A stretch of DNA of 64,000 nt from Schmidtea polychroa (Eukaryota). How positions within the stretch are numbered: position 1 is the stretch's first letter; every line of letters begins with the position of its first letter. Location of the stretch: the NCBI GenBank assembly GCA_044892525.1, contig JBJFYX010000106.1:62001-126000 (forward strand), in the 5' to 3' direction. A program made the translations under genes and the position numbers. Of the stretch, positions 44,954-64,000 are shown piece after piece. Below the pieces are notes generated by a model. It saw only the letters and a list, made by a program, of their open reading frames with translations, did not search any database and was not told where the DNA came from.

Positions 44954-47900
44954 TGTTGGCATATGAGGGAGAAGAAAACTTACACAACCATTATCATACC
45001 GACCGCATTGGTTAGCTCAGACACCTCCCATACATACGCCAAATGATCATTTACATATTCCCACGCATGAGCCCGTGGTGATGTTCCACGTTGGTAGTGC
45101 CCATACGGGTCGGAGCTGACTAACAGGTGAGCCCCTATCTTAGGACTACTGATAGCCCGCTCGCGGTTCAGGTTCACTGGTGCCTTAGAAGGACTTACCC
45201 TTATTCATGCTTCAGTCTTGGTTCGATCCTGGTCCAAGGGAACGACCGTTAGCCTACTCGCTTTCCTTCCACAACACTAAATTATTTATTCTCAAAACCA
45301 AACATATGAAAATCTTTATAAATCGGAACCAAATAGACAAAATATATTAATACCGAATTGAAAATAATAAAAACATCATTACACTTATTAATACAACATC
45401 ATACGGACGGTTAGGATGCACAATATTAACGAAGTCTATCAGTCAATTCACGACTCGAACTACATTCAGGGTCACTCGCGAACTGTTTTAGTTGAAGTTT
45501 TCTCCGTCGGCAATTAACTCGTCGATGTCTACCGGCAATCTACAATCCGAGATAAACTTGATGCCGTTAGCTGGAATGATACGGAAAACTTCTTTCGAGG
45601 GAATCGTATGAGTGGTGGATATCTCTGCTATTGTCGTCTGCGCTGCGAACAAAGAAGCCTCGAGCGCCTTCATTGCATTTCTTCGTTTCTTAGTCTTCTC
45701 GGCCCTAGTTGGGTGGTTGCGTTTGCGTGATGGCGGATTTCCTCCAACAGCAGTAGATACTGTGGGTGCCACTAGGATCGGGGCCAGAATTGGGTCAGAT
45801 GGACCGCCTTTCATAGGTAAGTATCCTGACAGCACTGGGGCTGGGATGGGCGGTAGATGTGAACCATGCCCTCGACAAGCTGTAGTGGGAGTTGTAGATG
45901 GCTGGTGATGGAGAGGAAAGACATTCGATCCATCCAATACGGGATATTCGCGTACCCGCTTTGCTATTTCTGCCTCCGTGTAGACCTTATGGAGGGCTTC
46001 TGATTGTGCTTTTATTGTGAGCCTTTGGCATCGGCTTTCTTCTAGTAGGCTGTCCCTACAATGTTCTAACCGGAGGATCTTAGCTTTTTCCTCCTTCATC
46101 TGTGGCGGGGAGAACCACGTTCCTTCATAAAGATCTATCCTCTTCTTGAGGGCCCCTATATATAAATGAAGTTGAGAGATGTCCGAGTTCTTGTCAGCGC
46201 AAGAGAAACACGGACGAAGCTCTTGGGCGTTATTGGATGGTGTTGTCATCTAGAAAATTAATCATGGTTCAAACCGAATTGCGATACTTATTAAGGTATC
46301 CGGTATAAGAATTCATTAGTTATAATTCTGTAATTTTTCACTAAGTGTCTTAATTCATAAATTTCATGCTTTTTAATATCTCAGCTAAGTTTTCTCTAGT
46401 AATCCGTTTTAACGGTGAAATATATCTAGTTCCAAATTCTACCGAGACACTAAACTCAAAGATTTCACTCATCATACCACGCCACAGCATACAATAAAAC
46501 AACTTGTTTTCACACAATTCAACACTCCTCATTCACTCATTTAGGAAACAACATTCCGATCGATTTATTGATTCAAGATGATGGAGAGAAGAAAACGGGG
46601 GAATCCTCGATTTTAACTTATTCGATGATAAATTTACCTTTATCCTCGGGTCGGATAACTCATACTCATTGCATTTTAGTCGGCTGCTATAGTCGAACAT
46701 ATTTACGCTCGTGATCAATAGAAAGGAATAGCATCCGATTGTTGGGGATTTCCGTTTATTAATTTGTACCTACTTCGTATTGCTAAATCGCATGAGAAAT
46801 TTATCTCTCCTTATGGTGCCTGGTTATTCCGAATTTACGGAAAGGACTTTAAATATATACTATTAGCTAATTATATTATAATTTAAATTTAAAAATTCTT
46901 TTTTAAAAATCGCGCTACTTCTGTCGCCTTAGTGACGCCTACTAGTAGAGGTGTGCATTTTTCTTATATTCATTAACTGAGTCGGTATGCATCGTTGGAG
47001 TAACTCCACCTCGTGCTTTCATGTGTGTCTATTTCTATGTGATGGTGGGGAAAATTCGACGTCGTGTTAAATCGCAGTGGAGACGATCCATGATGGAGTG
47101 TGTAGGTGTGTGCGGTTATATAATATATTGGAATTATCGCTGAGTGTTCTACGAGCATCACCATGGAATAGTGCGTAGTAATCCGATGAGCAACAACTAA
47201 GCTAGAATTTTTAATCTACCTCGATCATTACGCAGCCAGTACAAGACAAGGTCTACCCACGCGTCAATTAGATTATTCCTCGTGGAAATTTATTATCGGT
47301 ATTATCTGATTTCGTTGGTCGTTCAATTCGATCAGTTATCATCTGCCGGCAATTCATTTCTCAAGTCACTGATAACTCCTATCGTGGTTCCTCAATTCAG
47401 TCAGTGAGCAATTGATAAATCTGTCAGCGATTTCTGTCATTTTTCCGTGAGTAATCTGATAACCTCTCCTACTTATTTACATTCTTTTCAGGGAAGATGA
47501 TATTATCAGCGATTCGAAGCTAATCACTTAACTTAAAAATACATTCGTCGACGGGTGTCATCGCTAACATATCGACGGTTCAGATTCTACTAGTATACCG
47601 AGGAAAACCATACTCTACGGGACTTACTGGATTTACACTCCAAGCTTCGTCGACAACATTCTCGTTCACTATCCCGACTGACGGGTTGACCGTTATGAAG
47701 GAATTTCGCCGATCTATGTGGATTCTTAATACGTTGATGAAATTGTCAATCTCAACTCCGAACTGTCCTCGGTTCGCAACTTAAATCTCCTCCGCTATTA
47801 TCAGGTGTATCGATGTGACTTGTTGAAGCTATGGAACTTACTAAGAATGATGCGAGCTCGGTGAAGAAATTTCATCTTTCCGCCTGTTATCCTAACCTAC

Positions 47901-49194
47901 TGAGCCTCTACACCCCTCATAACACACCCAAGAAGGCAATCATCTCTGCCGCCATTCTCGGACGATCATGAGAGACCAGTCGACTCTTTCGCATTCAGCA
48001 ATTTAAAAGCAAATTTCAGATATAAATAATAAAAATGGAACAAATAATAATCAAGTAAATGAATCAAATTACCGGCGACCATATCGTCTGAGTTCCAAGT
48101 ATGATGCTTTCTCATTTTCCAACCCAATATTCCATTACAGTATTGGCATCGTATCCATTATTATCGCTTGCTCCTGATCCAATATCCTCGCAACATTTCT
48201 TGGCTACATATCATAAGACTCCTCGGGGCTACTTCCTCCATTTGGCATCATACTTGAAATCATCAGAAGGTACAGTCGTCGGCACCATGAAGAAAGGCAG
48301 GTTCTGTTTTTAAATAAATTTATTGAACAAATTTTCCTTGTTATTTACAAACTTTAATATCAATTATAAATAATTACTAAATTTCATCATATCTATCATA
48401 AAATTAAACCTAAAAAATATCCTACCATACCTTGAGATTAAATAACTGGGTTAAATCGGTTAAAGATTTCCTGAATAATACCGTTAATAGTTCGCTGTAT
48501 GTTTCTTCCTCAAATCAGATCAGTCTTCTTTGGATTAGTCCTCTGTAGTAGTTTGTGAATAAAATCTTGAAACCTGTAGAGTTGTTGGTTAAAGTGGTCG
48601 TGATAAGTTTTACAATTTTTACCTGTAGAGTTGTTGGTTAAAGTGGTACTCTACTGATTTTTAGCGTTTCTTATATACTATTTTCCGTCCAATCAGGACT
48701 TAGTTAGGTTGTAATTTTTAATATTTATTATTATTTTATGTTTTTATTATAATATATTAGCTTTTAATAACTTAACTTATTTCTTATTATTATTTTATTT
48801 ATTTTTCCTATTTTTCTTATTTTTCTCCTATTTTTTCTGCGGGTTCACTGCTACTTTATCATAATGCAATTTTTGTTTTAATTAAGCTTAAAGATATTTT
48901 TATTTTTTATTTATTGCTTTAATTTCTCGTTTATTTTCTCTTACCTTTTTGCTTATTCTATTTTTACTTTATTTATTGTGCTTTAACTCATTTCTCTTAT
49001 GTCCTATTTCTAATTCTTAAGGGCTTTATTTATTTATCATTTATTCTTATTTCTTTTTTATGGGTATTTTATTGTTTCCTTATTTATTATTGAGGTTTGA
49101 TGGGGATTTATTTTTATTATATTTCGTTTATATTTTTCGCGGCTCGTTTCCCGATTTAACCCAGTTTTTCTCTACTTCAAAACTTAGCCCAACA
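44954..49194 (-). repeat. Candidate 3' LTR, about 4.2 kb (TGTTGG...CCAACA)
   Basis: TGTTGGC at 44954 and GCCCAACA ending at 49194 give a 6-bp terminal inverted repeat. No clear PPT; the second LTR is outside the window. Confidence 0.35.
45488..46249 (-). CDS. Accessory ORF (253 aa): coiled coil, Pro-rich linker, basic NLS-like segment
   Basis: Uninterrupted ORF; ttttctag immediately before the ATG; RKRNHPTRAEKTKKRR; no recognisable domain. Confidence 0.6.
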   Translation of the reverse strand: MTTPSNNAQELRPCFSCADKNSDISQLHLYIGALKKRIDLYEGTWFSPPQMKEEKAKILRLEHCRDSLLEESRCQRLTIKAQSEALHKVYTEAEIAKRVREYPVLDGSNVFPLHHQPSTTPTTACRGHGSHLPPIPAPVLSGYLPMKGGPSDPILAPILVAPTVSTAVGGNPPSRKRNHPTRAEKTKKRRNAMKALEASLFAAQTTIAEISTTHTIPSKEVFRIIPANGIKFISDCRLPVDIDELIADGENFN

Positions 49195-49425
49195 AATCAC
49201 TCCGGGGCCCGTTAAAATTGCGCCCCGCAATTCACATATTATCATCCATTTAAATCATATCTTCTTTCGGCATAACAACTAATTTCACAGTCAACCTTCA
49301 CACAAACATAAAATTAAAATAACTAAATAATACTTTAATTAAACAGATAAAAGGACAAATATAAGCAAGCAGTGGCCACTTTAGGTGACCGGATTTATAC
49401 ACACAAAGTTTATGAATGGTCGATG

Positions 49426-50061
49426 TCACATGATCTTAAGGTTTGGAATGTTATTACTGTCTTGGTTGGTTGAATTCTGGGTCGGATGGCTGGTCGAAGT
49501 TGTTATCGTGGGGAGCTGTATTGTAACAGGTATTTGATCAGGAGATAGATTTTGTTGCATTTGGTCGGGTGGGTTTGGTTGTTGAAAGTGTACTGCTCGT
49601 TTATGCTTATTGTTTGGTCGTGGGTTCTTTCTTTCGGGTTTCTCGGATAGTGACTGGTTTCTTCTCCATGTCCGATAAATATCATACGCTTTCCAGATGA
49701 CTAGTGCGCAGATGATGATGGTTTCACTGATGGTAACATAGAGTAAGACTTGACTTTCTTTTGCTCCCTTCTTCATGATGATTTCCTTCAGGGATTGTTG
49801 GGTGGTTTGTTCTTGTAAGAGAATTTCGAGTTGTTCGATTTTTTGGGTTTGTAGATGGAGTTGCATTTGAAGTTTTTGCCAGACGGCTTTGTTCCAGCAT
49901 TGTTTCGGGATGTTGTTGGAGAGCTTTCTTTCGTTTTTCAGTTTGGTTAACGGGTTTTGCTGTTTCTCGGGATTCTCCCAGAGTGTTGGGATTGGCTGCC
50001 ACATGGGTGTTCCGTTTATCGCTATCATCATTATTGTCACCAGGGTTGCTCCGAACCACAT
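49426..50061 (-). CDS. Accessory type I membrane protein (211 aa)
   Basis: Signal-like MWFGATLVTIMMIAING, heptad Q/L ectodomain, TM VLLYVTISETIIICALVIW, basic stop-transfer segment, P/Q/T-rich tail. Confidence 0.75.
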   Translation of the reverse strand: MWFGATLVTIMMIAINGTPMWQPIPTLWENPEKQQNPLTKLKNERKLSNNIPKQCWNKAVWQKLQMQLHLQTQKIEQLEILLQEQTTQQSLKEIIMKKGAKESQVLLYVTISETIIICALVIWKAYDIYRTWRRNQSLSEKPERKNPRPNNKHKRAVHFQQPNPPDQMQQNLSPDQIPVTIQLPTITTSTSHPTQNSTNQDSNNIPNLKIM

Positions 50062-50116
50062 ACTACTATACGAAAATTTTTATTTACAATTATTTACATT
50101 GATCATTCATCTTTAA

Positions 50117-50818
50117 TTATTGCCGGGTTTTCTTTTTACGGGTTTTCTCGGATGTTCTCATCACTCTCGTTTCTGCTTTTATTACTCGTTTTCTCAATTC
50201 GGGTAGTACTTTTAATTGTTTGTCTCTTTCGTCTAACTGTTGCTTTAGGGTTATTATTTTTTCCTTTAGTGCTTTTATTTCTTGTGTTGCTCTTTCGAGG
50301 TTTTTATGGTTCATTATCTGTAGAAAATCATTTTCCCTTTCCCCGTCTTCTTCGTTGTCTATTTCTTGGTATTTGTTGTTCATTCTTTTCATTATTTCAC
50401 ATTCCTTTTGTTTCTGGTGTAGTTGGAGTTGTAACTCTTTCAGGCTTTCTTGGTGTTTCCGTGCCTCGGTTTTCCAATAATCACTAATCACTTCGTCGGC
50501 CTTTCTACTGGCCCTTTCCTGCCATAATTCTTCCGCGATCTTTTCCCAATTTCTCCCTCGCTTCCTTTGCTCGTGAAGCCATTCGTTTTCTTCCTCTACT
50601 TCTTTCTTTACTTCTTCTAACAGGGTGTATTCTCTTTTCAATACTTTAATCATTTTTCGATTATCTCTCCACCTTTCTACTAATCTTTCGTTTTCCTGTC
50701 TCTCCTCTTGTAATTCTTCCTTGATAGTTTTCTTCCTCTCCACTTCCTCAACTTCAATTTCTCCCTCTTCTAACTCGATTATAGATGTTATGATGGGTTG
50801 TCCGTTTTCAGTGTTCAT
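50117..50818 (-). CDS. Accessory coiled-coil protein (233 aa)
   Basis: Intact E/K/R-rich helical ORF. Confidence 0.75.
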   Translation of the reverse strand: MNTENGQPIITSIIELEEGEIEVEEVERKKTIKEELQEERQENERLVERWRDNRKMIKVLKREYTLLEEVKKEVEEENEWLHEQRKRGRNWEKIAEELWQERASRKADEVISDYWKTEARKHQESLKELQLQLHQKQKECEIMKRMNNKYQEIDNEEDGERENDFLQIMNHKNLERATQEIKALKEKIITLKQQLDERDKQLKVLPELRKRVIKAETRVMRTSEKTRKKKTRQ

Positions 50819-50991
50819 TTTCTATAATATATACATAATTAATAATTGCGCTACAGTGCGGCTTATACTTATACATTTATATGTTATTTTATAATCAGGG
50901 TTACAGTCCCTTTCATACTTTTACTGTACCATTAATTTTTTTGTTGGGATACAGGTCCCGATTTTTATATTTTTTATCTTTCCTTTCGTCT

Positions 50992-52029
50992 TTATACAAA
51001 GGTTTCTTCCTGGCCTACATATCCTTCATCGCTTTCTACTGACGTTTGTAATTGGAGTGCGATGGGATCAAATGGGATGTAGTACCGGGGAATCTGCGCT
51101 CTAAGTTCTTGGACTTCGTCTCTTAGCGCTCTTGACACGTTGAGTTCCTCGTCCAACAGGTAGGTTAAATACCTAGTTTCGTCATCCCGTACTTCTATCT
51201 GTTTTTCTAACTCTTCCGCCTTTTCGCCGTTCTCCCATTTTTTGATCTCCTTTTCGAGGTTCTTGATATTTTCATCATACATCTTCCTCTCGTTTTCTAA
51301 TTTCTTATTCTTACCGGCTAGCACTATGTTTCGTTGTTCTAGTGCCCCTTTGTAGCCGTTATTATCTCTCTCGAGGTCTGTCACCTTATTTACGAGTTCG
51401 ACGATTCTACCTGACTGTTGCAGGATCATCTCTTCCATGGCGGTATTCTCCTGTTCCTTTATAGACAGTTTCATGGCTAGATGCCTTTCAAATTCCATGG
51501 CCTTGGTCTGCCAGGTTTGACTTCGTGTTGCTATTTTCCTGAGCCTTCTTAGCTCTTCTCTCTGATCAAGGTTTTCCTCCCATTTCCCCTGCTCGGTTTC
51601 GTATTCTAATTTCTGAGGTAATTCCCTTATCTCCTTTTTAATTTCCCGATGTTGTCTTTTCCACTTTCTGGCTTCTGCCAAGAGTTGACGAGATTTCCTT
51701 TCCTCCTTTTGTTTTTCTATCTCTCGTTTTTTATTCTCGTCTGTCAGTCTTTTTCTCGATTCTTGTACTAGTTGCTTGAGGTAGTGACCGTGAGCTTCTT
51801 GTCGCGTATTTTCTAATGCTGCCCACTTGGCGGCTCTTTTACATGCCTCCGCCTCTGCTCGTAAGTTTTGCACCAACCACTGAAATTGGTGGTTTTCCCA
51901 TTCTCTTGCTTCTTCGAGGTAATTTCGTGTCTTATTTGATAATTGTGCCATTACTTTGGCCCATCTTTTTCGGTGTACTCCATTGATTTTTATTTCGTTG
52001 TTTGGGGCTTCTGTTTGTTCTTGTGTCAT
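50992..52029 (-). CDS. Accessory coiled-coil protein (345 aa)
   Basis: Intact E/K/R-rich helical ORF. Confidence 0.78.
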   Translation of the reverse strand: MTQEQTEAPNNEIKINGVHRKRWAKVMAQLSNKTRNYLEEAREWENHQFQWLVQNLRAEAEACKRAAKWAALENTRQEAHGHYLKQLVQESRKRLTDENKKREIEKQKEERKSRQLLAEARKWKRQHREIKKEIRELPQKLEYETEQGKWEENLDQREELRRLRKIATRSQTWQTKAMEFERHLAMKLSIKEQENTAMEEMILQQSGRIVELVNKVTDLERDNNGYKGALEQRNIVLAGKNKKLENERKMYDENIKNLEKEIKKWENGEKAEELEKQIEVRDDETRYLTYLLDEELNVSRALRDEVQELRAQIPRYYIPFDPIALQLQTSVESDEGYVGQEETFV

Positions 52030-52248
52030 CTTATCTGAATAACGAGATTATCAACTCAACGTCTCACATTTATATTTGTTCTATTATTTATTTATTGTTA
52101 CGAATATAGGTGGGTTGGGATTTTTTCTAGGTTTTCCGCTTAAATTTACCTTTAGTAGATTTGGGGTTTTTCTACACTATTATATAATATTTTACTGGAT
52201 ATATACGCCGATATTTACAATTTATTATATACAAAATTATTCATCTCA

Positions 52249-53637
52249 CTATTCAGTCCTACTCTTCCCATCTCGCCTCACCGCTATTTTTATGTATATA
52301 GTGTCGTTTCTCGTCATATCCTCCACTTTCCGCTGTAGGATAAAATTCGGTGCTCCGGTTGCTGGTCCTTCTTCTTCCAATGGCCTTTGATAACATACAA
52401 GGTTTCCTGCTGTATGGAAACTCTGCTCATGTGTACTTAGATAGTTCATCATTGCGAGGTCTATTTTTGCTTTGAACGGCCATTCTATTAACTCATCGTA
52501 TGGCCCTTTGCATATCAAGAAGAATATTGAGAAATGTGTTCCGTGCGCGCTTCCGTCCCCGTTGGGATATGCTTTCATTTTCATCTTATATCCGTTTTTC
52601 CATGAGTAGAAGGCTGGACTTAGTAATGTCGTGTCCTTTCCATTTCTCGCTCTCTGCATTTTCTCCTTTACTTCCGTTATTTTCCATATGTATGGAGCCG
52701 TTGGTATCAATTCATTGAGGTTCATTTCGCTTACTTTTTGATGTAGTTCTTTCACCATTTTGTTGCTAGTTTCTACTAGATCTGTTTGTATCTTTGTACT
52801 TAGTCTTGCCTCTTCGAATGCTTCTTTCTCTTGCAATAATTCTTTTACCAACGTTTTCAGCGAGGTTATTTCCTTTTCTAGGTTTTCGGTTTTCTTTTCG
52901 TTTTCTTGTAGTACCGTTGACCATATTTCTGCGTGTGTTGATACGTTCTCTGCTAGATGTTGGGGTAGTTCTCCTCGGTGTAATTGTTTCTGACATCCCC
53001 ATTTTCCTAACACACACATTATCTTTTTCCTTTCGCATTCTTTCAGATGTTGAGCGAGTTTTATTACTCCGGGTTTATCGCATTTGTTGGGACATTCTCC
53101 TCTGAATTCTGCGCACACTTTTTCCTCTTGTACGTTATGATGTTGACTCGTTAGTTTTCTCCAGGTGTCGGTTTCTCCGCAATATTCGCATCTTTCTAGC
53201 CTTTCCTTGCACCGACTTTGATGTTCTGTTTCTTCACTGGCTTTAATCTCTTCTTGGCAACGTTCGCAGTGACTGACTTTATGCTCACACTTCTCCATGT
53301 GTTGCCTCACCTCCCATATCACTCCTCGCCAATTGCATGGGGTGTTTTTACATCCTAGATTTGTATTCAACATATCTTTTACAGCTGCTTTATCTTCGTT
53401 TGTATCTCCCAAATTTGTTATCATTGTTTCTTTACATACTGGGCACCATTGTGGTCCCTTCTTTATTATTTCTTCTACACATTCTTTACACATTCTACAT
53501 CCGCATCTGGTTTGGTGAGGTTCTCTTAATAATCCCTTGCATATTCCACACTTCACATGGTCATGTATTCGAATTGTGGTGGATTTTCTGACTTGTTCGA
53601 CAATCTCCTTGAATTCTTCTCTTTGTCGCTTATCCAT
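52249..53637 (-). CDS. Full-length intronless TRAF-family protein (RING, TRAF zinc fingers, coiled coil, MATH)
   Basis: CGICKGLLREPHQTRCGCRMCKECV...CPVC RING; zinc fingers such as CPNKC...HLKEC; MATH motifs YIWKI, SPAFY, GYKMKMKAYPNGDG, GTHFSIFF, LIEWPF, DTIYIKI. Confidence 0.95.
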   Translation of the reverse strand: MDKRQREEFKEIVEQVRKSTTIRIHDHVKCGICKGLLREPHQTRCGCRMCKECVEEIIKKGPQWCPVCKETMITNLGDTNEDKAAVKDMLNTNLGCKNTPCNWRGVIWEVRQHMEKCEHKVSHCERCQEEIKASEETEHQSRCKERLERCEYCGETDTWRKLTSQHHNVQEEKVCAEFRGECPNKCDKPGVIKLAQHLKECERKKIMCVLGKWGCQKQLHRGELPQHLAENVSTHAEIWSTVLQENEKKTENLEKEITSLKTLVKELLQEKEAFEEARLSTKIQTDLVETSNKMVKELHQKVSEMNLNELIPTAPYIWKITEVKEKMQRARNGKDTTLLSPAFYSWKNGYKMKMKAYPNGDGSAHGTHFSIFFLICKGPYDELIEWPFKAKIDLAMMNYLSTHEQSFHTAGNLVCYQRPLEEEGPATGAPNFILQRKVEDMTRNDTIYIKIAVRRDGKSRTE

Positions 53638-53722
53638 TTCTATAATTATATATACATATATTCGTTACTGGTACAATTTCGTATTTTTATTTACAGTTAT
53701 TTACATTTGTTTTAGGTTATAT

Positions 53723-54082
53723 TTATTGACTGGAAGAGTCGGCCTCTTGTCCGCCCTCTTCCCTACTGGTTAACCATTCTGACCAGTCTTCTATCTCCTC
53801 TCTTTCCATTTCTTCAGCGATTCTCATTAATTCTTCTTCCTGTCCCTGGCTGTATCGCGATATTCGCACTATTTCCTGCTGCATTTGTTCTATCTTTATT
53901 CGCTGATCTTCGATTATTCTCACATAACTGAAACCTTTATTTAGACTTTCGACTAAGCTTCTTTGTGCAGCGAGTCCTTGTTCCTGTAAATTCGAAATCA
54001 CTTGGGTTAACATTGCACATTGCTGTTTCCACATCTCTTCGGTTGTCGTACTGTGGTTTACTTCATCGTTTATTCGCTCCAT
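53723..54082 (-). CDS. Accessory small coiled-coil protein (119 aa) with acidic Trp-containing tail
   Basis: Intact ORF with heptad pattern; EIEDWSEWL tail. Confidence 0.65.
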   Translation of the reverse strand: MERINDEVNHSTTTEEMWKQQCAMLTQVISNLQEQGLAAQRSLVESLNKGFSYVRIIEDQRIKIEQMQQEIVRISRYSQGQEEELMRIAEEMEREEIEDWSEWLTSREEGGQEADSSSQ

Positions 54083-54249
54083 TCTTAATTATATACACTT
54101 TTCAACCCTTATCTCATTTTAGTTTTATATTAATTGTCCCCATCATTATATAATATTGATACCGCGCTTATATAGAGATATAGAATACTGTTATATAAAT
54201 ACATATAATGTACTTACTTTTTACAATCTATATACAGTCATAATCCTTT

Positions 54250-55680
54250 CTATATTTGTGAGTTTGGAGGACGCTGAGCGTTCCAGGCCTCCACCCACTG
54301 TTCCTGTTTGATATTACTTGGTCTCTTTACCTGATGTTGAAAGTTTCTGATTCTGGCCATCTCCAGTTCTCCGCGATGCCGTCTATCTTTGATTATTTTT
54401 ATGGTTCCCCCCATTATGATTAAAAATGCCCCTGCTATTATTATGCCGCTGATCCACATCATCTGTTTCACGCTTATGATTTCCGCTTTTTCCTTGTTCG
54501 TTATTGTTGGTATTGCCTCTGTGCTTTTTAGATTATCATCTTTGTCATTTCCTTTTATCATTCCTCGTATTCTTGCTATTTCTTCGTTCATGCCTTCCTT
54601 TGCCATTTTTTGTATTTTCTCCATCTCTTCTTCTGACACGTAATTATCTTGATATTTCTCACTGGTTTTCTTGCGTTTTCCTTGCTCATCCTTTTCATCA
54701 TTGATTTTTCTTTTCTTCCCTCTTTTCCCAGGGTATCGTCGACATTCTCTCGCTGTATCGTTTCTCCAGATGCATACTGTGTATTCTTTTGGAGGTTGTT
54801 GCTGTGTTACATATTGTAGACAGTCTTCACCCGGTCCTAATCTTGAAATGCAGACTTTGTGTTCTTTTCTTGGCTGGAGTTGCGTTATCACTACCTCACC
54901 TCCTTTTTTCAGGTGTACCTCCTTCCCTTTGACTTTAGTTATTCTCTTCCCGTCTCGATTCCGGTATGCTTCTTGTATTCTTACTTCCGTTATCGGTTCT
55001 GTATCTTCATTTATTAATACTAGTCTCCGATATGCTCTCGACATACATCTTCCTAGTATGCACCTTTCTTTTAGATCCCATTCTTCTTTTAAATCCCATT
55101 GTTGCTCTCGTACTTGCTTCTTCTTTTCTTGCTTTAGTTCCTCCTCCTTGTTATCTTTGTTTTCCGTTTCCTTGGCTTCTTTTATCGTTCTCATTCCTCC
55201 GTGAGCTGTTATCATTTCTACCATTGTTAGTATGAGTATCATTACCATCATATTTGTCTCCATTTCCTTGTTGGTAAAAAGTAGGCATACCCTCTGTTTT
55301 CCATTATTCGTCTTTTCCTCTTCCTTTGTTCGGTTTCCCGGGTTATTTTCCTCTTTTCTCATACTCGCGTCGTTATTTTCTTGCTTATTCTCCTCTGATT
55401 TCTCTTTCCCGTTTTGACCTGTTTCGTCATTATCGTCGTCTTTATAGTCTTTATCTCCCCCGCTGTCGTTTGAAATGTCGTCCTCGACATTTATGTCGTT
55501 CAATAATCTGCGATATGCTGTTAACACTCTATTTCTTGCTAATTTCGCTTCGAATTCGAACTCCTTTCTGCCTGTTGCTGCATGTCTCTTTCTGTTCCAT
55601 TCTTTTACTAATTCTCTTAATTGTATTCGACGATTTTTCCGATTCGCTTTTGTTCGTTTTGATTTTGCGTGAATTTGAGG
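54250..55680 (-). CDS. C-terminal segment of the polyprotein: acidic linker, internal signal peptide, FN3-like ectodomain, TM, short tail
   Basis: Frame is open from about 55740 and joins the ankyrin frame by a 1-nt shift near 55672. MMVMILILTMVEMITA signal; VVITQLQPRKEHKVCIS FN3-like strands; MMWISGIIIAGAFLIIMGGTI TM. Confidence 0.72.
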   Translation of the reverse strand, partial: PQIHAKSKRTKANRKNRRIQLRELVKEWNRKRHAATGRKEFEFEAKLARNRVLTAYRRLLNDINVEDDISNDSGGDKDYKDDDNDETGQNGKEKSEENKQENNDASMRKEENNPGNRTKEEEKTNNGKQRVCLLFTNKEMETNMMVMILILTMVEMITAHGGMRTIKEAKETENKDNKEEELKQEKKKQVREQQWDLKEEWDLKERCILGRCMSRAYRRLVLINEDTEPITEVRIQEAYRNRDGKRITKVKGKEVHLKKGGEVVITQLQPRKEHKVCISRLGPGEDCLQYVTQQQPPKEYTVCIWRNDTARECRRYPGKRGKKRKINDEKDEQGKRKKTSEKYQDNYVSEEEMEKIQKMAKEGMNEEIARIRGMIKGNDKDDNLKSTEAIPTITNKEKAEIISVKQMMWISGIIIAGAFLIIMGGTIKIIKDRRHRGELEMARIRNFQHQVKRPSNIKQEQWVEAWNAQRPPNSQI

Positions 55681-58600
55681 TCTTCTCTGTTCAATACGAT
55701 CATTATGATTTTCGGAGTTCCTCCTTTTGTCAGCGTATTTTTAACCATGGCATTTTCCCCGTTTTCATAGAACTCATTTATGTTTATTGCATATGTATTA
55801 CTTTGTGGTATTTTCCAGGTTAACAATAACTTCATGGCTTCTAAGCTCTTCCGTATCGTGTTCCATTGGAATTGTGACGTGTTTTTGCAGATATTTTCTA
55901 CCTCAGTTCTTGTAGCATTTTTACAAATGAATCTAATCCTTTCCAGGTTTGGTTGTATTGTTGCCCAATCCATGGTAGAATTTCCCTCGTTTGATTTCTC
56001 GTCAAGTCTCTAACCTGATTGATGTAGTATGTGTAAGGTTTTCGGGTGTATATTTGTTATTGCTGCATACATCATTGCTGTTTCTCCTTGTTCATTTTTT
56101 GCATTAGATTCTTCTCCGAAGTCTCTAAGAATTCTTATGATGGTTATTGCTCTGTTTTCTTTTGCTGCTAATATTGCTTGTTGTAATGGTGTTCTTGAAT
56201 CTTTCGTCGGTAAGGTGAATGCTAGTGGTATGAATGTTTTCATTTTTCCTATGTCTAGATTTGTGGTCTGATCTCTTGCGTAGGTGTGTACTGTTTTTGT
56301 TATTTTTGCTAGTATCGCCTCATCGGATAGATCTTGCATTTCTTCAAAGAATACTTCTTTAGCCTTACGTACTACTATCTCTTGGTCGGAGTTTATTGTC
56401 TTTGGTTTACTTGTTGTTGCTATATCGGTTATTATTTGATCGGTTTGTTTCTCAGACTCTCTTGCTGTTATTTTCTTGATTTTTATCCTTTTCTTGTTCG
56501 AACTGTTAATGCGTTCTTCCGCTGTAAGCACTTGAATAATACTTAGGTAGTTTTCTCGGATGTTGTTCATAGTTTCCATCATATATAATACGTTCACAGT
56601 TTCCCAATATTTTACTTGTACTTTATCGGTAAATTGAGATATGGCTTTTTCGAAGTTTGTAATTCGTTTTCTGATTAGTTGTTCGTCTTTGTGATTTGAA
56701 AACTTTATGCCACGTTGTAGTAGTTGATTTGGAATTTCGAATAGGTGATGTCCTCTCATCGCTTCTCTCATCAAGGTGTTTTCTCCTTTGGTAAATGTTT
56801 CGTTTATATCTACCATATAATCGTTTTTGATCGGGTTCCTCCATGCAATTAGTAATCCAGTAATTGTTATTAATTTCTCTTTGATCGCCGTTAATAGCCC
56901 GTCATACATGTTTCCTATCTCCCTATTATCCTCGTACGATAATAGATCTACTAAGATTATGAAGGCTTCCGTACTTTTCCCTTCGATTGCATGATGTAGT
57001 GCATTTTTCCGGTTGTGATCTTGTGTGGTTATCTTTGACCCAGTTTCAAGTAATGCGATAATAATATCTTTAGCTTTATCCCGATTGGCTGCTATCATTA
57101 GTGGGGTGTAACCTTGGTTATTTTCTTGATCCGTTGAAACGTTACAATCGCGAAATGCTTCAATTGTCTCTAGTATTTGTTCATTATTACCAACCTTTAA
57201 AAGTTTGTGTAGTGGTGTATCTCCGTAATGGTCTGTGATCGTGAATAATATGGGCCATTGACTTTTAACTACCCTGAGCAATGGGTGTGTTCTTTCTCGG
57301 TTTGCATAGTTTTCTATCATGGTTAGCAGACCTCCCAATATCTCAAAATCCAATTTATCTTTAGCCCATCCGGGTATTTTAGCTTTTACTTCTTTTATGA
57401 TTTTCTCGGCTTCTGATGGTTGTAGCCCCGATCGATTACCCGTTGGTTTGTTTATCTGCTGTAACATATTGATTCTATACGTTTGTGATCTGGTTGTTAA
57501 TGTTCGCCCTTCTGGCTGATTGGTGGCGGTTTTCGGAATTGGCTTACATCGTGCAACATTTACGTATATTGGTCTTGTAAAAGGGTTGTTCACTAATCGT
57601 ACTCTTACATTAGTTTCTCCGACAAATAAAATCTCATACGGCCCTTTACCGTTTCGTTGTAATTTTTTGGTGGTTCCTGGAATTAATTCTGGTGTTTCGA
57701 TCATCACCCAATCGCCTGTTTGAAACGTATGCTGTTTGACGTTTTTCTTTCTATCATGTAAATCTTTGTAACTTTCTTGATAAAATTTTATATTCAATCC
57801 TGCAGTTTCCCAGATTTCCTGCATTCTTTCCTTGAACTTGGTTACATAATCGTCTATTTCCATGTATTGTGATATTGGTGGCTGATATTCTAAGTCCATT
57901 GGCATATTACATTCTCTACCATACATCAATTTGAATGGACTCATCTTTGTGGACGCGTGAATCGACATTCTGTAAGCCATTAAACATAATTTTATATACT
58001 CGTCCCAGTCGCGTTGATGACGATCGACATAATTTGATAACATTTGAATCAAGGTTCCGTTGAATCTTTCTGTCATACCATTTGTTTGTGGGTGGTACGG
58101 TGATGTTCTTAATTTTGCAATCTTGAAGTAATTGGTTACTTCGCTCATTATTTCACTCATGAAATTTGTTCTCTGATCAGTTAATATCTGTTTTGGTGTT
58201 CCATATCGACAGCATATCTCCTCTACCAGTATTTTCGCGATTGTTTTTGCTTTCTGGTCTGCCATAGCGAATGCTTCAGGGAATTTTGTCAAATAATCTG
58301 TGATTACCAATATATATATATTTCCTCTATCGGATTCTGGTAGTGGACCGACTACGTCCATAGATATCATTGTCATTGGTTCTGCCGGTACTGGCATTGG
58401 CTTTAACGGTGCTTTCCATTTCGTTCCCGTGTTTTTTCTGGTCGCGCAAGTTATACAGTTCTTTACCCATTCCGTTACATCCTCAATCAATGTAGGCCAA
58501 AAATACTTTTGTTTCATTCGGGCTAACGTCTTCTTCGATGACATATGTCCTCCGAGTCTTCCGTCATGATATTGCGTTAGCAAATCTTTACGTCTATTTT

Positions 58601-58790
58601 CTGGAATGCACATCAGTCTCTTTTCCCCATCCATTATCAATAACCAATCTTTCTCGATAATATATCGATGTCGATGTTTATCCATGTGTTCTTTCAGTTT
58701 TTGATCTTTCTCGTATACCTCTGCTTTTCCAGTTTTTACATATTCGATAATTTGTTTCAACTCGGCATCATCTTGCTGGTCTTTTCGTAA
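55617..58790 (-). pseudogene. Integrase fused to ankyrin repeats; in frame with pol across TAA 58791-58793, with an internal TAG at 56010-56012
   Basis: HHCC (YHDGRLGGH...CITC), SMDVVGP, LTDQ, GMTERFN, GPY. Ankyrin motifs GDTPLH, GYTPLMIAA, KNALHHA, RTPLQQA, GETAMMYAA, G*RLDEKSNEGNSTMDWA. Confidence 0.92.
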
Positions 58791-61700
58791 TTAGCAAAAA
58801 TCTAAATCTTCCGCTACCATTAGACATATCCGTTGCATTTCATGATCTACTAAATCTGGAAAGATAAACCTTGACATACAATCCGCATTGGCATTCGCTC
58901 TTCCTGCTTTGAATTTTATGAACGGTGAATATTCTTGCAACTGCATTGCCCATCGCATCAATCTACTTGAAGCTTCTTTGTGCTGTCCGAGCCATACTAA
59001 TGGTTGGTGATCTGTTGTGATACATATTTCGTGTCCCCATAACAAATATCGAAAATGTTTTATCGCTTGTATTATAGCTAACGCTTCTCTTTCTGTTACT
59101 GAATAGTTTTTCTCATGCTTTTTAAACGTTCTGCTGTAATAGCCGATTACTCTCTCCTTTCCTTCTTCATCGAGTTGTCCTAATATTGCTCCGGCTGCAT
59201 ATCCACTTGCATCGGTTGCTAACAAGAACGGTTTCTTGAAATCAGGATGTACTAGTATTGGGGCTTCAATTAATTTATCTCGCAATGTTTCAAAGGCTTT
59301 TTGCTGTTCTGCTCCCCAGATAAATGAAATGTCTTTTTTCACTAATTCCTGGATTGGTTTCGCAATACTTGCATAATTTTTAATGAATTTCCGATAATAT
59401 CCGCATAATCCGAGGAATTCTTGAACTTGGGTGACAGTTTTCGGTGCTGGACAGGTTTTTATTTTTTCTATATTTCTTGGATCTGGTTCTTTGCCTTTTG
59501 CTGACACTATGTGTCCTAAGAACGTAACTTTTTCTTTTGCCCAATCACATTTGGATGGTTTAAGCTTCAATTTCCATTGTCGTAATCGGATGAACACGTT
59601 TCTAATGTCTTCCAAATGTTGTTCGAAAGTTGCTGAATATATTAATAAATCATCAATATATACCATACATTGCTTGATCCCGTGTGTGACGAAATTCATG
59701 CATCTCTGAAATGATGCTGGGGCATTGGTCAGTCCAAATGGCATTTTCCTGAATTGATATAGATCTCGGCCCAATGTGAATGCTGTTTTCTCTTTGTCTT
59801 CCTCCTTGACTTTGATCTGCCAATATCCGCTCTTTAGATCTAAAGACGTAAAATATGCGGCCCCCTGTAGCATAAGTAACATCTCATTGATGTCTGGTAA
59901 TGGGTATGTGTCTCTTTTTGTTACTGCATTTAATTTCCGATAATCGATACAGAATCTCTGAGTACCGTCTTTTTTCTTTACCATGACTACTGGAAATTGC
60001 CATGGCGAACAACTTGGTTCGATCACTTGTGCATCTAGCATTTTTTGTACTTCTGCTTCGGCTATCTCTTTTTGCTTCTCTGCTAGTTTGTATGGTCGTA
60101 ACGCAATTGGAGTTTCGTCTATTAATGGTATTGCGTGTAATGTGACATCGCATGCTCCCAAATCTAAATCCGAAATTGCGAATATATCTTTATATTCTAT
60201 TAGTAATTGTTGAAGTCTTTCCTTTTCTCTTTCCGTTAGCAAGGTGCTATCAATTATCCATAATTCGTCAGCTTTCGTTGTTTCGTTGGTGATTTTTGGT
60301 AATTCAATGTCTATCATGGGTGTCAATCTACCCAATCTTTCATTTTCATATATGATCTTGTCTTCCTCCTCGAAATTTGTGATGTTAATTGGTATTTCCC
60401 CTTCTTCATTTATTGTTATTATTTCTCTTGCTAATGGTAATTCTCGTCGTTTTTCGAATGATTTGCTTGGCTCGAAAATGGCTTCTCCTTCCATTCCTGC
60501 ATCCACTTTTATTTGACATATCATCTGTGATTTTGCTGGCACAATTATTTTCTCCGGACATCTAATTATTGCGTTCATCTTGCATATTCTACCCATTTTA
60601 TCTTTTAGACACATTGTTGTTAAATCGATTACTACTTCCTTGAACAATTCCGGCATTAAATCCGTTCCGATTATACATGGTTCGCTCAGTTTGGGTATCA
60701 CCGCTAGATACGTTTCAATTTCATTATCTTGATATCGTAACGTAGTCCACCATCTTCCTACTACGTCTACGGTTTCTTTACTGCATGCAATAATATGGAT
60801 AGTTGTTTGTTCGATATCTTTCCAACATTTAGTGGGTATTTGGTTTATTGCTATTGCTGATACGTTTGCTCCGGTATCTATCATTGCGCTTGTCTCTTTC
60901 CCATTGATTTGGATCATGACTGTTACTGCCGCGCCTCCTGGTGAACTCATTACTGCTATTGTTCTGACGTCATCAGCTTGGTCTACGCTTTTCGTTCTTC
61001 GGATTGGCATATAGTTCATTCCTGGTTGACTTGGTAACTGTGGATACATATTTTGTGTCATGGTCAAAGCTGTTTGTTGTCCAACGATATCTGGTGGTAT
61101 ATAACTTCCGTTGGCTATCCAGGTATTTGTTTTTTCTTTCTCCCAATATGGCGCTGTTTCTATTGGCTTTTCATTCGGGTTTCTACTTGGGTATGGATAT
61201 TTGTCATTCCCATTGTCGTCATCATCACTATCGCTGCTGTTTGATCGATTTCTAAATCTGTCTAAGAATTTTGGTTTGTTCTTCTTTAATTGCGCTCTCG
61301 TTGCTTCATCATACATCGTTTTCCGAAATCGTCTGCCAACTTCCTCGTCAGTCCCTTTTATTTTTGTCAGTATTTTGATTAATCGTTTTATTCTGTGTAT
61401 GTCTTTGGAATGACCGTGCAACACCATTGTTTTTGCCAAAAATGGTAGAAAACCTACTATCAATTTCCAATTCACTTTCTTTTCTCGCTTGTATATATCG
61501 AAGCATGCCAACATTTGGGTCAATATTACCCTGACGATCTGAATAATTAAGATGATTCCCAATATTCCTGCCATCATTTGACCGAACACTAGAAATCTTC
61601 CCCACATTGCTTTCATCATGTTTGACGTGGCTTGTTGAAAATGATCCGGTGATAATAATAGTTCATAGTTGGGACTTGATTGGAAATTCGTTCCCCCAGT

Positions 61701-62789
61701 TATGGTAACCATATTTGATAAAATGGATTCCCGTCTTGCTGGGAATAATACGTTTAATCGTGCCGTTTCTAAATCCTCTGGTGAGTACATACCGGCCTTT
61801 GACACATCAATTGGTTTGAAATCCTGTTCTGTTGCAAGCTCTATTAATCCAAACTTTTTAGGTTCTTGCACTTCAACTTTTAACGGTAACATTATCCATT
61901 TCCCATCGGGTTTTTCATATAATGGCCCGTATGCATTTGAACAGTTAAAGGTGTTCGGATAAAATCCAATTGGGTTCATAATTCTGGTGACGGGTTGAAC
62001 GAATCTGTTCCGCCCTTTGTAACTAATTTCTAATTCGTTTGCACATTTCCCTGGTGGAATTGTGGGTTTTCTTGGCAGTCGTGCAAATGTCTTGGTACAT
62101 GCATATGTATACATTACCTCTCCCACCATTCTACCAAAATGTCCATCCGGTAACGGGAGTGATGTCATTGTGTTATCTGGGTGTGTTATTGCGATGGCTA
62201 ATTTTGTTTTTAGTATTTCTTTATTCAATGAACAGTCATTTTGTATAAGATCGTAATATACTTTTTGCATTGTCGTTTGTCCTCGATGGAATAGGAAGTC
62301 CATCTTGTTATTGGCATACAAGTACAATTTTACGTCTTCCGTTGCTACCTTTTCCACTGCTCTGTCTATTACTTGCCTTGACATGTAGATACCTGCGTAG
62401 TTCGTCCGGTATACTATACTGTCACATTTGGTAGTCTCTTTTTCTCTGATGAATTTCATACCGATATCTGGATCATCTGTAATTAATGCCGTTGGTGTTT
62501 TTTGTGTTGTGAGTCTCTTTTCTTTGGGGGATGGTGGGACTGGTTTCCCATTTCGCATCCTTACGTTTCCATTCTCTTCGTCGTCATCTTCGTTTTCATA
62601 AATTTCTCCTTTTACTTCATTGAACAAAGCACTTTTTAACAACTGGAGTCGGCATTTTTGGGTGTTGGCTTCATATATTATAGTCGAAATTCCCGTTCTA
62701 CACACGTTTTCCGTAGCTCTGCATGCTGGGTTGGTTTTCATTTGATAATTATTTGCGTCGAATTGCGCTTCGTATTCCTTCAAATCCAC
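58791..62789 (-). CDS. Polyprotein segment: glycoprotein C-half and TM, aspartic protease, RT, RNase H
   Basis: TM WGRFLVFGQMMAGILGIILIIQIV (about 61500-61605); MIDTGANVSAI (about 60875); FCIDYRKLN, MPFGLTNAP, YIDD (about 59655); LATDAS, EREAL, TDHQPL, NADCMS. Confidence 0.95.
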   Translation of the reverse strand: MDLKEYEAQFDANNYQMKTNPACRATENVCRTGISTIIYEANTQKCRLQLLKSALFNEVKGEIYENEDDDEENGNVRMRNGKPVPPSPKEKRLTTQKTPTALITDDPDIGMKFIREKETTKCDSIVYRTNYAGIYMSRQVIDRAVEKVATEDVKLYLYANNKMDFLFHRGQTTMQKVYYDLIQNDCSLNKEILKTKLAIAITHPDNTMTSLPLPDGHFGRMVGEVMYTYACTKTFARLPRKPTIPPGKCANELEISYKGRNRFVQPVTRIMNPIGFYPNTFNCSNAYGPLYEKPDGKWIMLPLKVEVQEPKKFGLIELATEQDFKPIDVSKAGMYSPEDLETARLNVLFPARRESILSNMVTITGGTNFQSSPNYELLLSPDHFQQATSNMMKAMWGRFLVFGQMMAGILGIILIIQIVRVILTQMLACFDIYKREKKVNWKLIVGFLPFLAKTMVLHGHSKDIHRIKRLIKILTKIKGTDEEVGRRFRKTMYDEATRAQLKKNKPKFLDRFRNRSNSSDSDDDDNGNDKYPYPSRNPNEKPIETAPYWEKEKTNTWIANGSYIPPDIVGQQTALTMTQNMYPQLPSQPGMNYMPIRRTKSVDQADDVRTIAVMSSPGGAAVTVMIQINGKETSAMIDTGANVSAIAINQIPTKCWKDIEQTTIHIIACSKETVDVVGRWWTTLRYQDNEIETYLAVIPKLSEPCIIGTDLMPELFKEVVIDLTTMCLKDKMGRICKMNAIIRCPEKIIVPAKSQMICQIKVDAGMEGEAIFEPSKSFEKRRELPLAREIITINEEGEIPINITNFEEEDKIIYENERLGRLTPMIDIELPKITNETTKADELWIIDSTLLTEREKERLQQLLIEYKDIFAISDLDLGACDVTLHAIPLIDETPIALRPYKLAEKQKEIAEAEVQKMLDAQVIEPSCSPWQFPVVMVKKKDGTQRFCIDYRKLNAVTKRDTYPLPDINEMLLMLQGAAYFTSLDLKSGYWQIKVKEEDKEKTAFTLGRDLYQFRKMPFGLTNAPASFQRCMNFVTHGIKQCMVYIDDLLIYSATFEQHLEDIRNVFIRLRQWKLKLKPSKCDWAKEKVTFLGHIVSAKGKEPDPRNIEKIKTCPAPKTVTQVQEFLGLCGYYRKFIKNYASIAKPIQELVKKDISFIWGAEQQKAFETLRDKLIEAPILVHPDFKKPFLLATDASGYAAGAILGQLDEEGKERVIGYYSRTFKKHEKNYSVTEREALAIIQAIKHFRYLLWGHEICITTDHQPLVWLGQHKEASSRLMRWAMQLQEYSPFIKFKAGRANANADCMSRFIFPDLVDHEMQRICLMVAEDLDFC

Positions 62790-64000
62790 TGGATATTACC
62801 TCCCCTCTGATCGTATATGTGCCTCCGTTACAGGATCCATCGGTCGATTTTACCCGTCCGGCTACATAGATGCTTTCGGTCTTAATCATCCCGCTTTGTC
62901 CGTGTATTGTTACTCCATCCCGGATTCTCATTGCTCCGGTTCTAAAAAGCTCTTTGCAGTCTTCCCGTTGTATAGGTACTATTTCTTTATCTAATCCGGG
63001 TAGTATGAGAGTTGAATAAGAATATTGTCCACAATAATATGCCAACACTTTCTTTGATACTACGCATTCTCTAGCTTGTGTTCGAATAAAATCTGATTCT
63101 TGATATACGTGATAGGAGACTTTCTTCTTTACTATATCTAATTTATTCGGAGATGCTTGTCTGCATTCCTCTATATCTCTCAGGGAGTATTTTTCTCTTA
63201 ATACCGAATTGTCACAGTCGTAGATTGTAAATCCAGCTGCTCCGCTGGTACAGAGCATCCATATCATCATGGTCATCATTAGTGAATTAATCGACGCTTT
63301 TCTGCTGGCTGGGTCCTTTAATGGCAATTCCCATTCTAGCTCGTTTAATAATTTTTTCAACCGAATTTGCATTGATCTCTCTTGCTCGTTTTTCCGTGGT
63401 GCTTGTATGAGTCTTTTCCATCCACCGGCGCGGATAATATGTGGTTCGATTGTAGTTTCAATGATTGTAACTGTCATTTCTACATGATTTGCGAATTGTT
63501 TGTTAGGTATTTTTCTTGCTGCTAATCCCATCAAATTGTACATTAGATACGTTAACACTACTAAATGATGTTCGTCGTCGTTTGCGTTTAAAGTTAATTG
63601 TTCAATTACTCTTCTTGTCTCTTCCCAATCGGTTTTAGTGGTTTTTGTCTTCTCTTTGATTAATTTCGGAATTATTCCGGATATTGTATTCCATAGCTGT
63701 CTGGCATCTACGCTTGCTACTTTTCGTTGCCATAACCGTCTCAATTGCGGGTTCGTTATTATTAACATATCCTTTACTAGCTCTCGTATCCATTTTTCAC
63801 CTCTCTCGATTGTTGGTTGGGCTTCTTTTAGGTCCCATACTATTTTATCCAGTTTCTCTAATCTGACTTGTCCTTGTTCTTGTTTTAGTTGTTCTCTAGT
63901 TTTAAATTCTGGTTTTTCTCCTTGTTTCTTGGGTCTTCCTTTTGCCCGTTTCTCCATCATTGTTCCAGCTTCTCTTGTCTTTTCGTAATTCGGGTTTCTC
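62749..64000 (-). CDS. Polyprotein segment: Bcl-2-like domain, internal signal peptide, N-half of a gB/chuvirus-like glycoprotein. Open past the window edge; shifts into the 58791-62789 frame near 62790
   Basis: Frame is open to 63999 (RNPNYEKTREAGT-MMEK). HIIRAGGWKRL is BH2-like. LMMTMMIWMLCTSGAAG/FTIYDCD signal and cleavage site; Cys pattern YYCG...DGSCNGGTY. Confidence 0.85.
   Translation of the reverse strand, partial: RNPNYEKTREAGTMMEKRAKGRPKKQGEKPEFKTREQLKQEQGQVRLEKLDKIVWDLKEAQPTIERGEKWIRELVKDMLIITNPQLRRLWQRKVASVDARQLWNTISGIIPKLIKEKTKTTKTDWEETRRVIEQLTLNANDDEHHLVVLTYLMYNLMGLAARKIPNKQFANHVEMTVTIIETTIEPHIIRAGGWKRLIQAPRKNEQERSMQIRLKKLLNELEWELPLKDPASRKASINSLMMTMMIWMLCTSGAAGFTIYDCDNSVLREKYSLRDIEECRQASPNKLDIVKKKVSYHVYQESDFIRTQARECVVSKKVLAYYCGQYSYSTLILPGLDKEIVPIQREDCKELFRTGAMRIRDGVTIHGQSGMIKTESIYVAGRVKSTDGSCNGGTYTIRGEVISSGFEGIRSAIRRK

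Follow-up and report, generated by a model that had tools for sequence, protein, structure and literature searches.

The 64,000-nucleotide (nt) stretch of Schmidtea polychroa DNA analysed here (hereafter the window; assembly GCA_044892525.1, contig JBJFYX010000106.1, positions 62,001 to 126,000) carries six accessory open reading frames (ORFs), all of which lie on the minus strand of a single 30,652-nt long terminal repeat (LTR) element. This element runs from window position 44954 to position 137605 of contig C106, i.e. past the window end, and is a young giant Gypsy element (Metaviridae) of the Burro type. Its 3′ LTR (44954..49194, minus strand; 4241 nt with TG...CA ends) is 99.9% identical to the 5′ LTR, which lies beyond the window at positions 133365-137605 of contig C106. 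The element is flanked by a 4-nt target duplication, ATAC, and a tRNA-Pro-like primer-binding site follows the 5′ LTR. The 3′ part of the gag-env-pol polyprotein region (54250..64000, minus strand) is divided into several ORFs in this copy. Pfam matches on the element comprise a viral fusion protein, protease, reverse transcriptase, RNase H, integrase, ankyrins and a RING-MATH TRAF-like accessory gene; the order is the PF24664 fusion protein, then RVP, RVT_1, RNase H and rve, with gag zinc knuckles upstream. As for cargo domains, Pfam finds Ank, MATH and RING, and gave no match for BIR.

Planarian Burro/GYPSM1 elements are described as ~30 kb long, with multi-kb LTRs, an env that encodes a fusion protein and lies between gag and pol, ankyrins behind integrase, TRAF/MATH, RING or BIR cargo, accessory ORFs and many copies (PMC6431247). 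The window element shares the length, the multi-kb LTRs, the fusion protein before the protease, the ankyrins and the TRAF/MATH and RING cargo, but differs in that its MATH domain belongs to a separate ORF 3′ of pol and that its leader ORF matched the RING family only. The section on Burro in the same paper is silent on how accessory ORFs are expressed, which is the subject of the present analysis.

An AG before every accessory start codon

The initial annotation had remarked that each accessory ORF starts just after a splice acceptor-like AG. All six minus-strand contexts are present, with an AG 0-5 nt upstream of the ATG, and in 5/6 the AG follows a pyrimidine (YAG). Behind the polyprotein region comes an ORF of 119 amino acids (aa) at 53723..54086 (minus strand, as all those below), whose AAG acceptor-like site has its G at 54084, 1 nt from the ATG at 54082. 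The TRAF-like ORF of 462 aa (52249..53642; RING, zinc fingers, MATH) is preceded by TAG, with the G at 53640 and 2 nt from the ATG at 53637. At the 345-aa ORF (50992..52037), CAG (TAG in other copies) has its G at 52035, 5 nt from the ATG at 52029, which also has an AAG at distance 0. The 233-aa ORF (50117..50824) follows a TAG with its G at 50822, 3 nt from the ATG at 50818, while the 211-aa ORF with two hydrophobic stretches (49426..50068) has tandem TAG sites, the Gs at 50066 and 50063 placing an AG 4 or 1 nt before the ATG at 50061. Finally, at a 253-aa ORF without a Pfam match (45488..46252), the acceptor-like TTTTCTAG abuts the ATG at 46249 (distance 0).

Five of these ORFs do form one cassette, as had been proposed for all six, but the ORF starting at 46249 is located in the LTR and has a twin copy in the 5′ LTR. 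A seventh accessory ORF, encoding a RING protein of 159 aa, lies outside the window after the 5′ LTR with TTTAG 2 nt before its ATG, so that an acceptor-like AG precedes 7/7 accessory ORFs of the element. Two upstream ORFs of 370 and 118 aa had rightly been omitted from the accessory set, since they are polyprotein pieces; related copies read through both.

Three sets of control ATGs have fewer such sites. AG and YAG were found at 57/158 (36%) and 18/158 (11%) non-coding ATGs of the element (P = 0.002 for AG in 6/6, 1e-4 for YAG in at least 5/6), at 87/191 and 34/191 internal in-frame Met codons (P = 0.009 and 9e-4) and, below the element's 6/6 and 5/6, at 9/29 and 6/29 first ATGs of host G-protein-coupled receptor (GPCR) genes (30 loci minus one near-duplicate; Fisher p = 0.003 and 0.007), all of these values being somewhat generous because the tested interval of 0-5 nt was taken from the six cases themselves. 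Host acceptors at TRAF loci, which are themselves inferred, are AT-rich and include TAAG.

Retention across copies and in a sister family

A nucleotide search that used the TRAF region as query returned 378 candidates, 40 of which were scored, at 90-100% identity. The four cassette AGs that are covered by 30 close copies are unchanged in 30/30, which is weak evidence because 20/34 spacer AGs are invariant too. At 52035, TTCAG and TTTAG are exchanged between copies with the YAG retained. The LTR ORF has TAG directly before its ATG in 17/17 copies that possess the ORF, with upstream DNA and U5 types that are mutually unalignable. An older subfamily of 72-81% identity retains the AG next to different exon bases, and replacement genes in two cassette slots bring their own YAG.

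In a sister family, the pol of which is 73% identical, the cassette can no longer be aligned as DNA and the accessory proteins are mostly colinear homologues of 28-36% identity. Here, an AG lies 0-3 nt before 8/8 accessory ATGs and is a YAG in 7/8, with one 255-aa ORF scored at its second ATG, the first having no AG. Judged from these sequences, the sister-family AGs show long retention rather than independent origin.

It could be argued that the AGs reflect chance or the ordinary host start context in purine-rich DNA, and control ATGs do have an AG within 5 nt in 31-46% of cases. With both families pooled, however, YAG precedes 13/15 accessory ATGs as opposed to 6/29 host starts (p = 5e-5), even if the 15/15 AGs do not represent 15 independent events because the sister genes are mostly homologous and colinear; the YAG is moreover kept in diverged LTR types and in both families. 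We regard this explanation as highly improbable: the AG feature before accessory ATGs is real.

A predicted promoter and splice donors in the LTR

If the AGs are acceptors, a leader with a donor should exist upstream, and the LTR offers candidates. On the minus strand of the 3′ LTR, a CCAAT-box block, GTCCTGATTGG (48687..48699), is invariant in 20 aligned LTR sequences and is followed by a TATA-like box (48670..48677) and an initiator-like YYANWYY element (CCACTTT or TCATTCT; 48640..48646) with a predicted start at 48644, the initiator lying 49-50 nt from the CCAAT block in 19/20 LTRs. A predicted donor D1, CAG/GTAAAA (48617..48625), would close a leader exon of ~22 nt and is present in 19/20 LTRs; the functional copy would be that of the 5′ LTR. 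A second predicted donor, D2 (AAG/GTATGG, 48425..48433), lies further downstream in the LTR and would give a leader exon of ~215 nt; a GTA is retained at this position in 20/20 LTRs with unlike flanks. An AATAAA at 48319..48324 is the predicted poly(A) signal closing R, which places the R/U5 border by inference, and the order CCAAT, TATA, initiator, D1, D2, AATAAA is conserved across the 20 LTRs. The predicted LTR thus has a U3 of ~550 nt, an R of ~340 nt and a U5 of 3.3 kb, and it is in this long U5 that the ORF starting at 46249 would reside, since the AATAAA would end R well before it. Between initiator and D2 there is no ATG in 17/20 LTRs and one in three, and the next 100-150 nt hold 3-8 ATGs in all 20. 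Of 30 sister-family LTRs, 27 have a TATA box, an initiator and, 75-87 nt beyond the TATA box, a GTRAG donor.

Donors located in R before the poly(A) signal recall foamy viruses, whose LTR has its major splice donor in an R of 193 nt and which make several spliced mRNAs (PMC3694450), though the start and poly(A) sites of the window element are predicted only. Foamy viruses (Retroviridae) differ in having an internal accessory promoter and no gene in U5.

Not every donor-like sequence of the element fits such a role. The best-conserved LTR block (45027..45247, minus strand) contains a donor-like GG/GTAAG at 45198, which was rejected as a leader donor: it is kept in the window family but has no sister-family match and lies downstream of the predicted poly(A) site. 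This block shows apparent compensating hairpin changes, has a remnant in the sister family and adjoins the LTR gene with its basic tail; a search of Rfam with it gave no match. We think that it is probably a structured RNA, the principal leader donor lying elsewhere. In the region where pol ends, a donor at 54330 was discarded because it is retained in just 5/30 copies, and a donor-like AAA/GTAAGT (54212-54220, minus strand), 33 nt past the polyprotein stop, is invariant in 30/30 copies and also occurs in two older ones; it might begin an intron of 134 nt that ends at the acceptor at 54084, or be a U1 site.

A start codon predicted to be made by splicing

The best clue for cis-splicing, albeit an indirect one, is a start codon that splicing is predicted to create in the sister family. 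The sister homologue of the protein starting at 46249 (34% identity, E = 1e-6) contains no in-frame ATG before codon 48-67. In three diverged sister LTR types, a T-rich YAG followed by TG is found in the same phase where homology begins, and the arrangement also occurs in 30/30 close sister copies. Most animal donors end in G, whereas the sister leader donors end in A in 26/27 cases, across 11 flank variants. Cis-splicing of such a leader to the acceptor would join its terminal A to the TG and thereby form a start codon. The host spliced leader (SL), which itself ends in ATG, would be out of frame at this gene. An intron between the two LTR ORFs of the sister family was also considered and rejected on phase.

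A split start codon has a precedent within the Metaviridae. Drosophila errantiviruses express env from a spliced mRNA (bioRxiv 10.1101/2023.08.03.551782, PMC4276936), and in the springer subclade the env start codon is split across the junction, with an AU dinucleotide supplied (bioRxiv 10.1101/2023.08.03.551782). Like the window element, for which this is predicted, these Metaviridae use a spliced subgenomic RNA to express a protein encoded downstream, and they share the split start codon predicted for the sister family. Unlike their one spliced product, however, seven to nine acceptors are predicted here, the donor is in the LTR, and env lies within the polyprotein.

Conserved motifs behind the stop codons

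A further recurrent feature lies at the other end of the genes. The motif TGTA(A/T)A(T/A)A, usually doubled, is found 14-19 nt past the stop at 10/11 internal junctions when both families are counted. In the window, on the minus strand, it appears as TGTATATA and TGTAAAAA at 54218..54236 (+14 and +25 past the polyprotein stop), as doubled TGTAAATA at 53688..53705 (+18 and +28, running into AATAAA), as TGTATATA and TGTAAATA at 52212..52233 (+16 and +30, with AATAAA between) and again as doubled TGTAAATA at 50081..50098 (+19 and +29, running into AATAAA). It was not found after the RING gene, the LTR gene or the 345-aa gene. The five spacers hold 10 motif matches where 0.75 are expected, a number reached by 0/500 shuffles, and other copies, as well as a replacement gene, have kept the spacing. 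Host genes rarely have the motif within 60 nt of the stop (0/21 GPCR genes, counted without nine loci with partial matches or one duplicate, and 2/29 TRAF genes).

We take the candidates for its function to be a UGUA plus AAUAAA 3′-end signal or a PUF-type element beside the terminating ribosome. Most likely, the TGTAAATA pairs mark a 3′ end for each gene or act to protect long-tailed mRNAs, although this is the least certain step of the proposal. In four sister copies, ~14-50 A directly follow the motif in the spacer after a 532-aa ORF (L120), which may be what is left of a poly(A) tail.

The doubled motif could also be read as part of a different arrangement, in which the AT-rich TATATA...AG block before each gene is a promoter or initiation context and the accessory genes depend on internal promoters or on re-initiation along a polycistronic RNA. 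TATA-like runs do precede several accessory ATGs, and the TGTAAATA copies, spaced 9-14 nt apart, resemble a forkhead site. Foamy viruses, too, express accessory genes from an internal promoter (PMC3694450). However, the TATA-like runs lie 10-15 nt from the ATG, which is too near for a normal start, the abutting AG and ATG at 46249 leave no room for a 5′ untranslated region, and the spacing of the post-stop motif tracks the upstream stop and not the ATG. Nor was any strong internal donor found around the 3′ end of pol that both families share, and internal promoters would leave the ATG-less LTR gene of the sister family unexplained. We consider this arrangement very unlikely.

Cis-splicing or spliced-leader trans-splicing

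The initial annotation had left cis- and SL trans-splicing level. In a trans-splicing scheme, the 3′ cassette would function mainly as an SL-type operon in which the RNA is cut 3′ of each gene and the host SL is joined to the next AG, and the LTR donors would be used only for the RING and LTR genes and in poly(A) control. The host has SL RNA genes: 98 of the 112 SL matches in the genome were examined, yielding seven SL RNA genes and 91 SL-fused copies in 50 clusters, and the seven loci carry the SL, a GT donor and an Sm-like site and match the published Schmidtea SL. The cassette spacers measure 55-219 nt, and flatworm operon distances peak near 100 bp (PMC8629364); UGUA pairs occur in 4/5 spacers and AATAAA near the stop in 3/5, and the post-stop motif with its frequent AATAAA is rare after host genes. 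Likenesses to the SL operons described for flatworms and C. elegans are the short same-strand spacers, an acceptor near the next ATG and a possible 3′-end signal in the spacer (PMC12582326, PMC8629364), and flatworm cis and trans acceptors are often shared (PMC12582326).

Against this stands that operon acceptors have no cis donor, whereas conserved LTR donors lie upstream here, and a strong upstream cis donor is reported to disfavour trans-splicing (PMC8629364, citing Conrad 1993). In addition, for roughly half of the genes or more the ATG at the end of the SL would not be in frame, and the distance from AG to ATG varies among copies. None of the 91 SL-fused genomic copies enters a Burro accessory exon, a weak negative because those copies arose by another capture route. 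The post-stop motif does not separate the two modes, as a 3′ end for each gene would suit both SL operons and a set of alternative last exons. On balance the genomic evidence favours cis-splicing, and we judge an SL-type operon unlikely, while some use of the SL at the 3′ cassette may still occur.

The SL-fused copies, at least 91 in number (G000, L198-L209, L217-L295) and many of them preceded by GTAGTGAG-like bases, are fossils of trans-spliced mRNAs that some mobile element has captured.

The proposed expression programme

Taken together, we think it likely that the AGs are 3′ splice acceptors that are joined in cis to a short leader from the LTR. Transcription would begin ~550 nt into the 5′ LTR, and the unspliced RNA would serve as genome and polyprotein mRNA. 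Joining D1 (22-nt exon) or D2 (~215-nt exon) to one of the seven acceptors would make that gene's ATG the first to be scanned, and the LTR gene in U5 would be expressed from its copy in the 5′ LTR. By analogy with foamy viruses only, the donors before the poly(A) signal in R may stop the 5′ LTR from ending the RNA. ATGs lie within 80 nt upstream of the start in 6/7 genes of the window element, in frames that vary between copies, as expected if they are spliced away. Expression from the LTR promoter by splicing, as the initial annotation had suggested, is thus borne out to the extent that conserved promoter, donor and acceptor signals exist, together with a predicted splice-made start codon in the sister family.

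Several observations weigh against this reading. The site before the ATG at 54082 is an AAG with only 12 AG-free bases, one LTR (L105) lacks D1, and dinucleotide shuffles of the leader are likewise ATG-poor, low TG content explaining part of the shortage. The splice-made ATG concerns one LTR gene of the sister family, neither the window element nor the 3′ cassette. An early ATG is present in 25/27 sister leaders; given that its frame varies and that two leaders lack it, the terminal A would nevertheless be the constrained feature. The cassette spacers, as discussed above, resemble those of SL-type operons in length and signals. Lastly, assembled contigs of runs X1, X6 and X7 (presumed RNA) and X2 were placed on the window, and those of X1 also on a better-matching copy. 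They span several acceptors unspliced, and no leader-to-acceptor junction was found in the presumed-RNA contigs among 12 joints listed and the best 6 of 146 loose ends, a result that we treat as neutral because contigs drop rare forms and the 22-nt leader would be shorter than the assembly word.

One X1 joint, 53733-50099, at first resembled a deletion within the cassette; it turned out to be a spacer that belongs to an older subfamily. A search for retrocopied leader-exon junctions yielded only three unrelated matches and one ordinary LTR.

A more far-reaching version of the proposal would resemble the adenovirus major late unit, in which a DNA virus joins a tripartite leader to many acceptors and uses several poly(A) sites. 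In this version, the 22-nt leader would be joined to seven to nine last exons, each with its own doubled UGUA/AAUAAA 3′-end module, the U5 gene would have a splice-made start, and the RNA severed downstream would be rescued by the host SL; no such programme is known from LTR retrotransposons. The likeness lies in one leader serving many acceptors, the per-gene 3′ ends being only inferred here; as a complete programme, it is a doubtful prospect.

Other features of the copy and its surroundings

In the window copy, the two LTRs differ at just four positions and the accessory genes are intact, yet the polyprotein region is broken into several ORFs; the copy was therefore probably mobilised in trans. 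A locus identical to the window across 4901 nt (L002, G000:C1:168386782-168391682) is either a sister insertion of very recent date or a duplicate produced by the assembly. A tandem array with units of ~73 nt (L031 6306-6839) lies in the leader that separates gag from the RING gene. Among copies with 87-97% likeness in the cassette (L094-L113), there are several U5 types that cannot be aligned with one another, and the last two cassette slots hold alternative genes, which suggests frequent module exchange.

Immediately outside the 5′ LTR lies a 747-aa ORF (L032 3912-6155, plus strand) that looks like a hAT-type transposase. Elsewhere, the window contains an integrase-core ORF (8708-9751, minus strand), a ubiquitin hydrolase fragment (11410-11898, minus strand) and a 31-nt minisatellite (26774-27575).

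Significance for planarian retroelements

Burro elements and spliced retroviral or subgenomic mRNAs are known already. Our literature searches, which do not establish absence from print, found no paper on the splicing of Burro accessory genes or on a programme of seven to nine acceptors, nor, in the literature covered, a description of how a 30-kb element might express up to nine small genes. Burro cargo includes regulators of apoptosis and ubiquitin, and one cargo gene of Burro1 reportedly helps stem cells to survive (cited in PMC13465017). Burro RNA levels go up when piwi is knocked down (PMC8532177). If many-acceptor splicing is indeed used, it would give a Metaviridae element a regulation on a par with that of complex retroviruses and would permit cargo genes to be expressed without making genome RNA. 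It would also explain how new genes are slotted in, namely as units of acceptor, ATG, ORF and motif. Should rescue by the host SL prove true as well, this would be a retroelement that exploits SL trans-splicing for an operon of its own.

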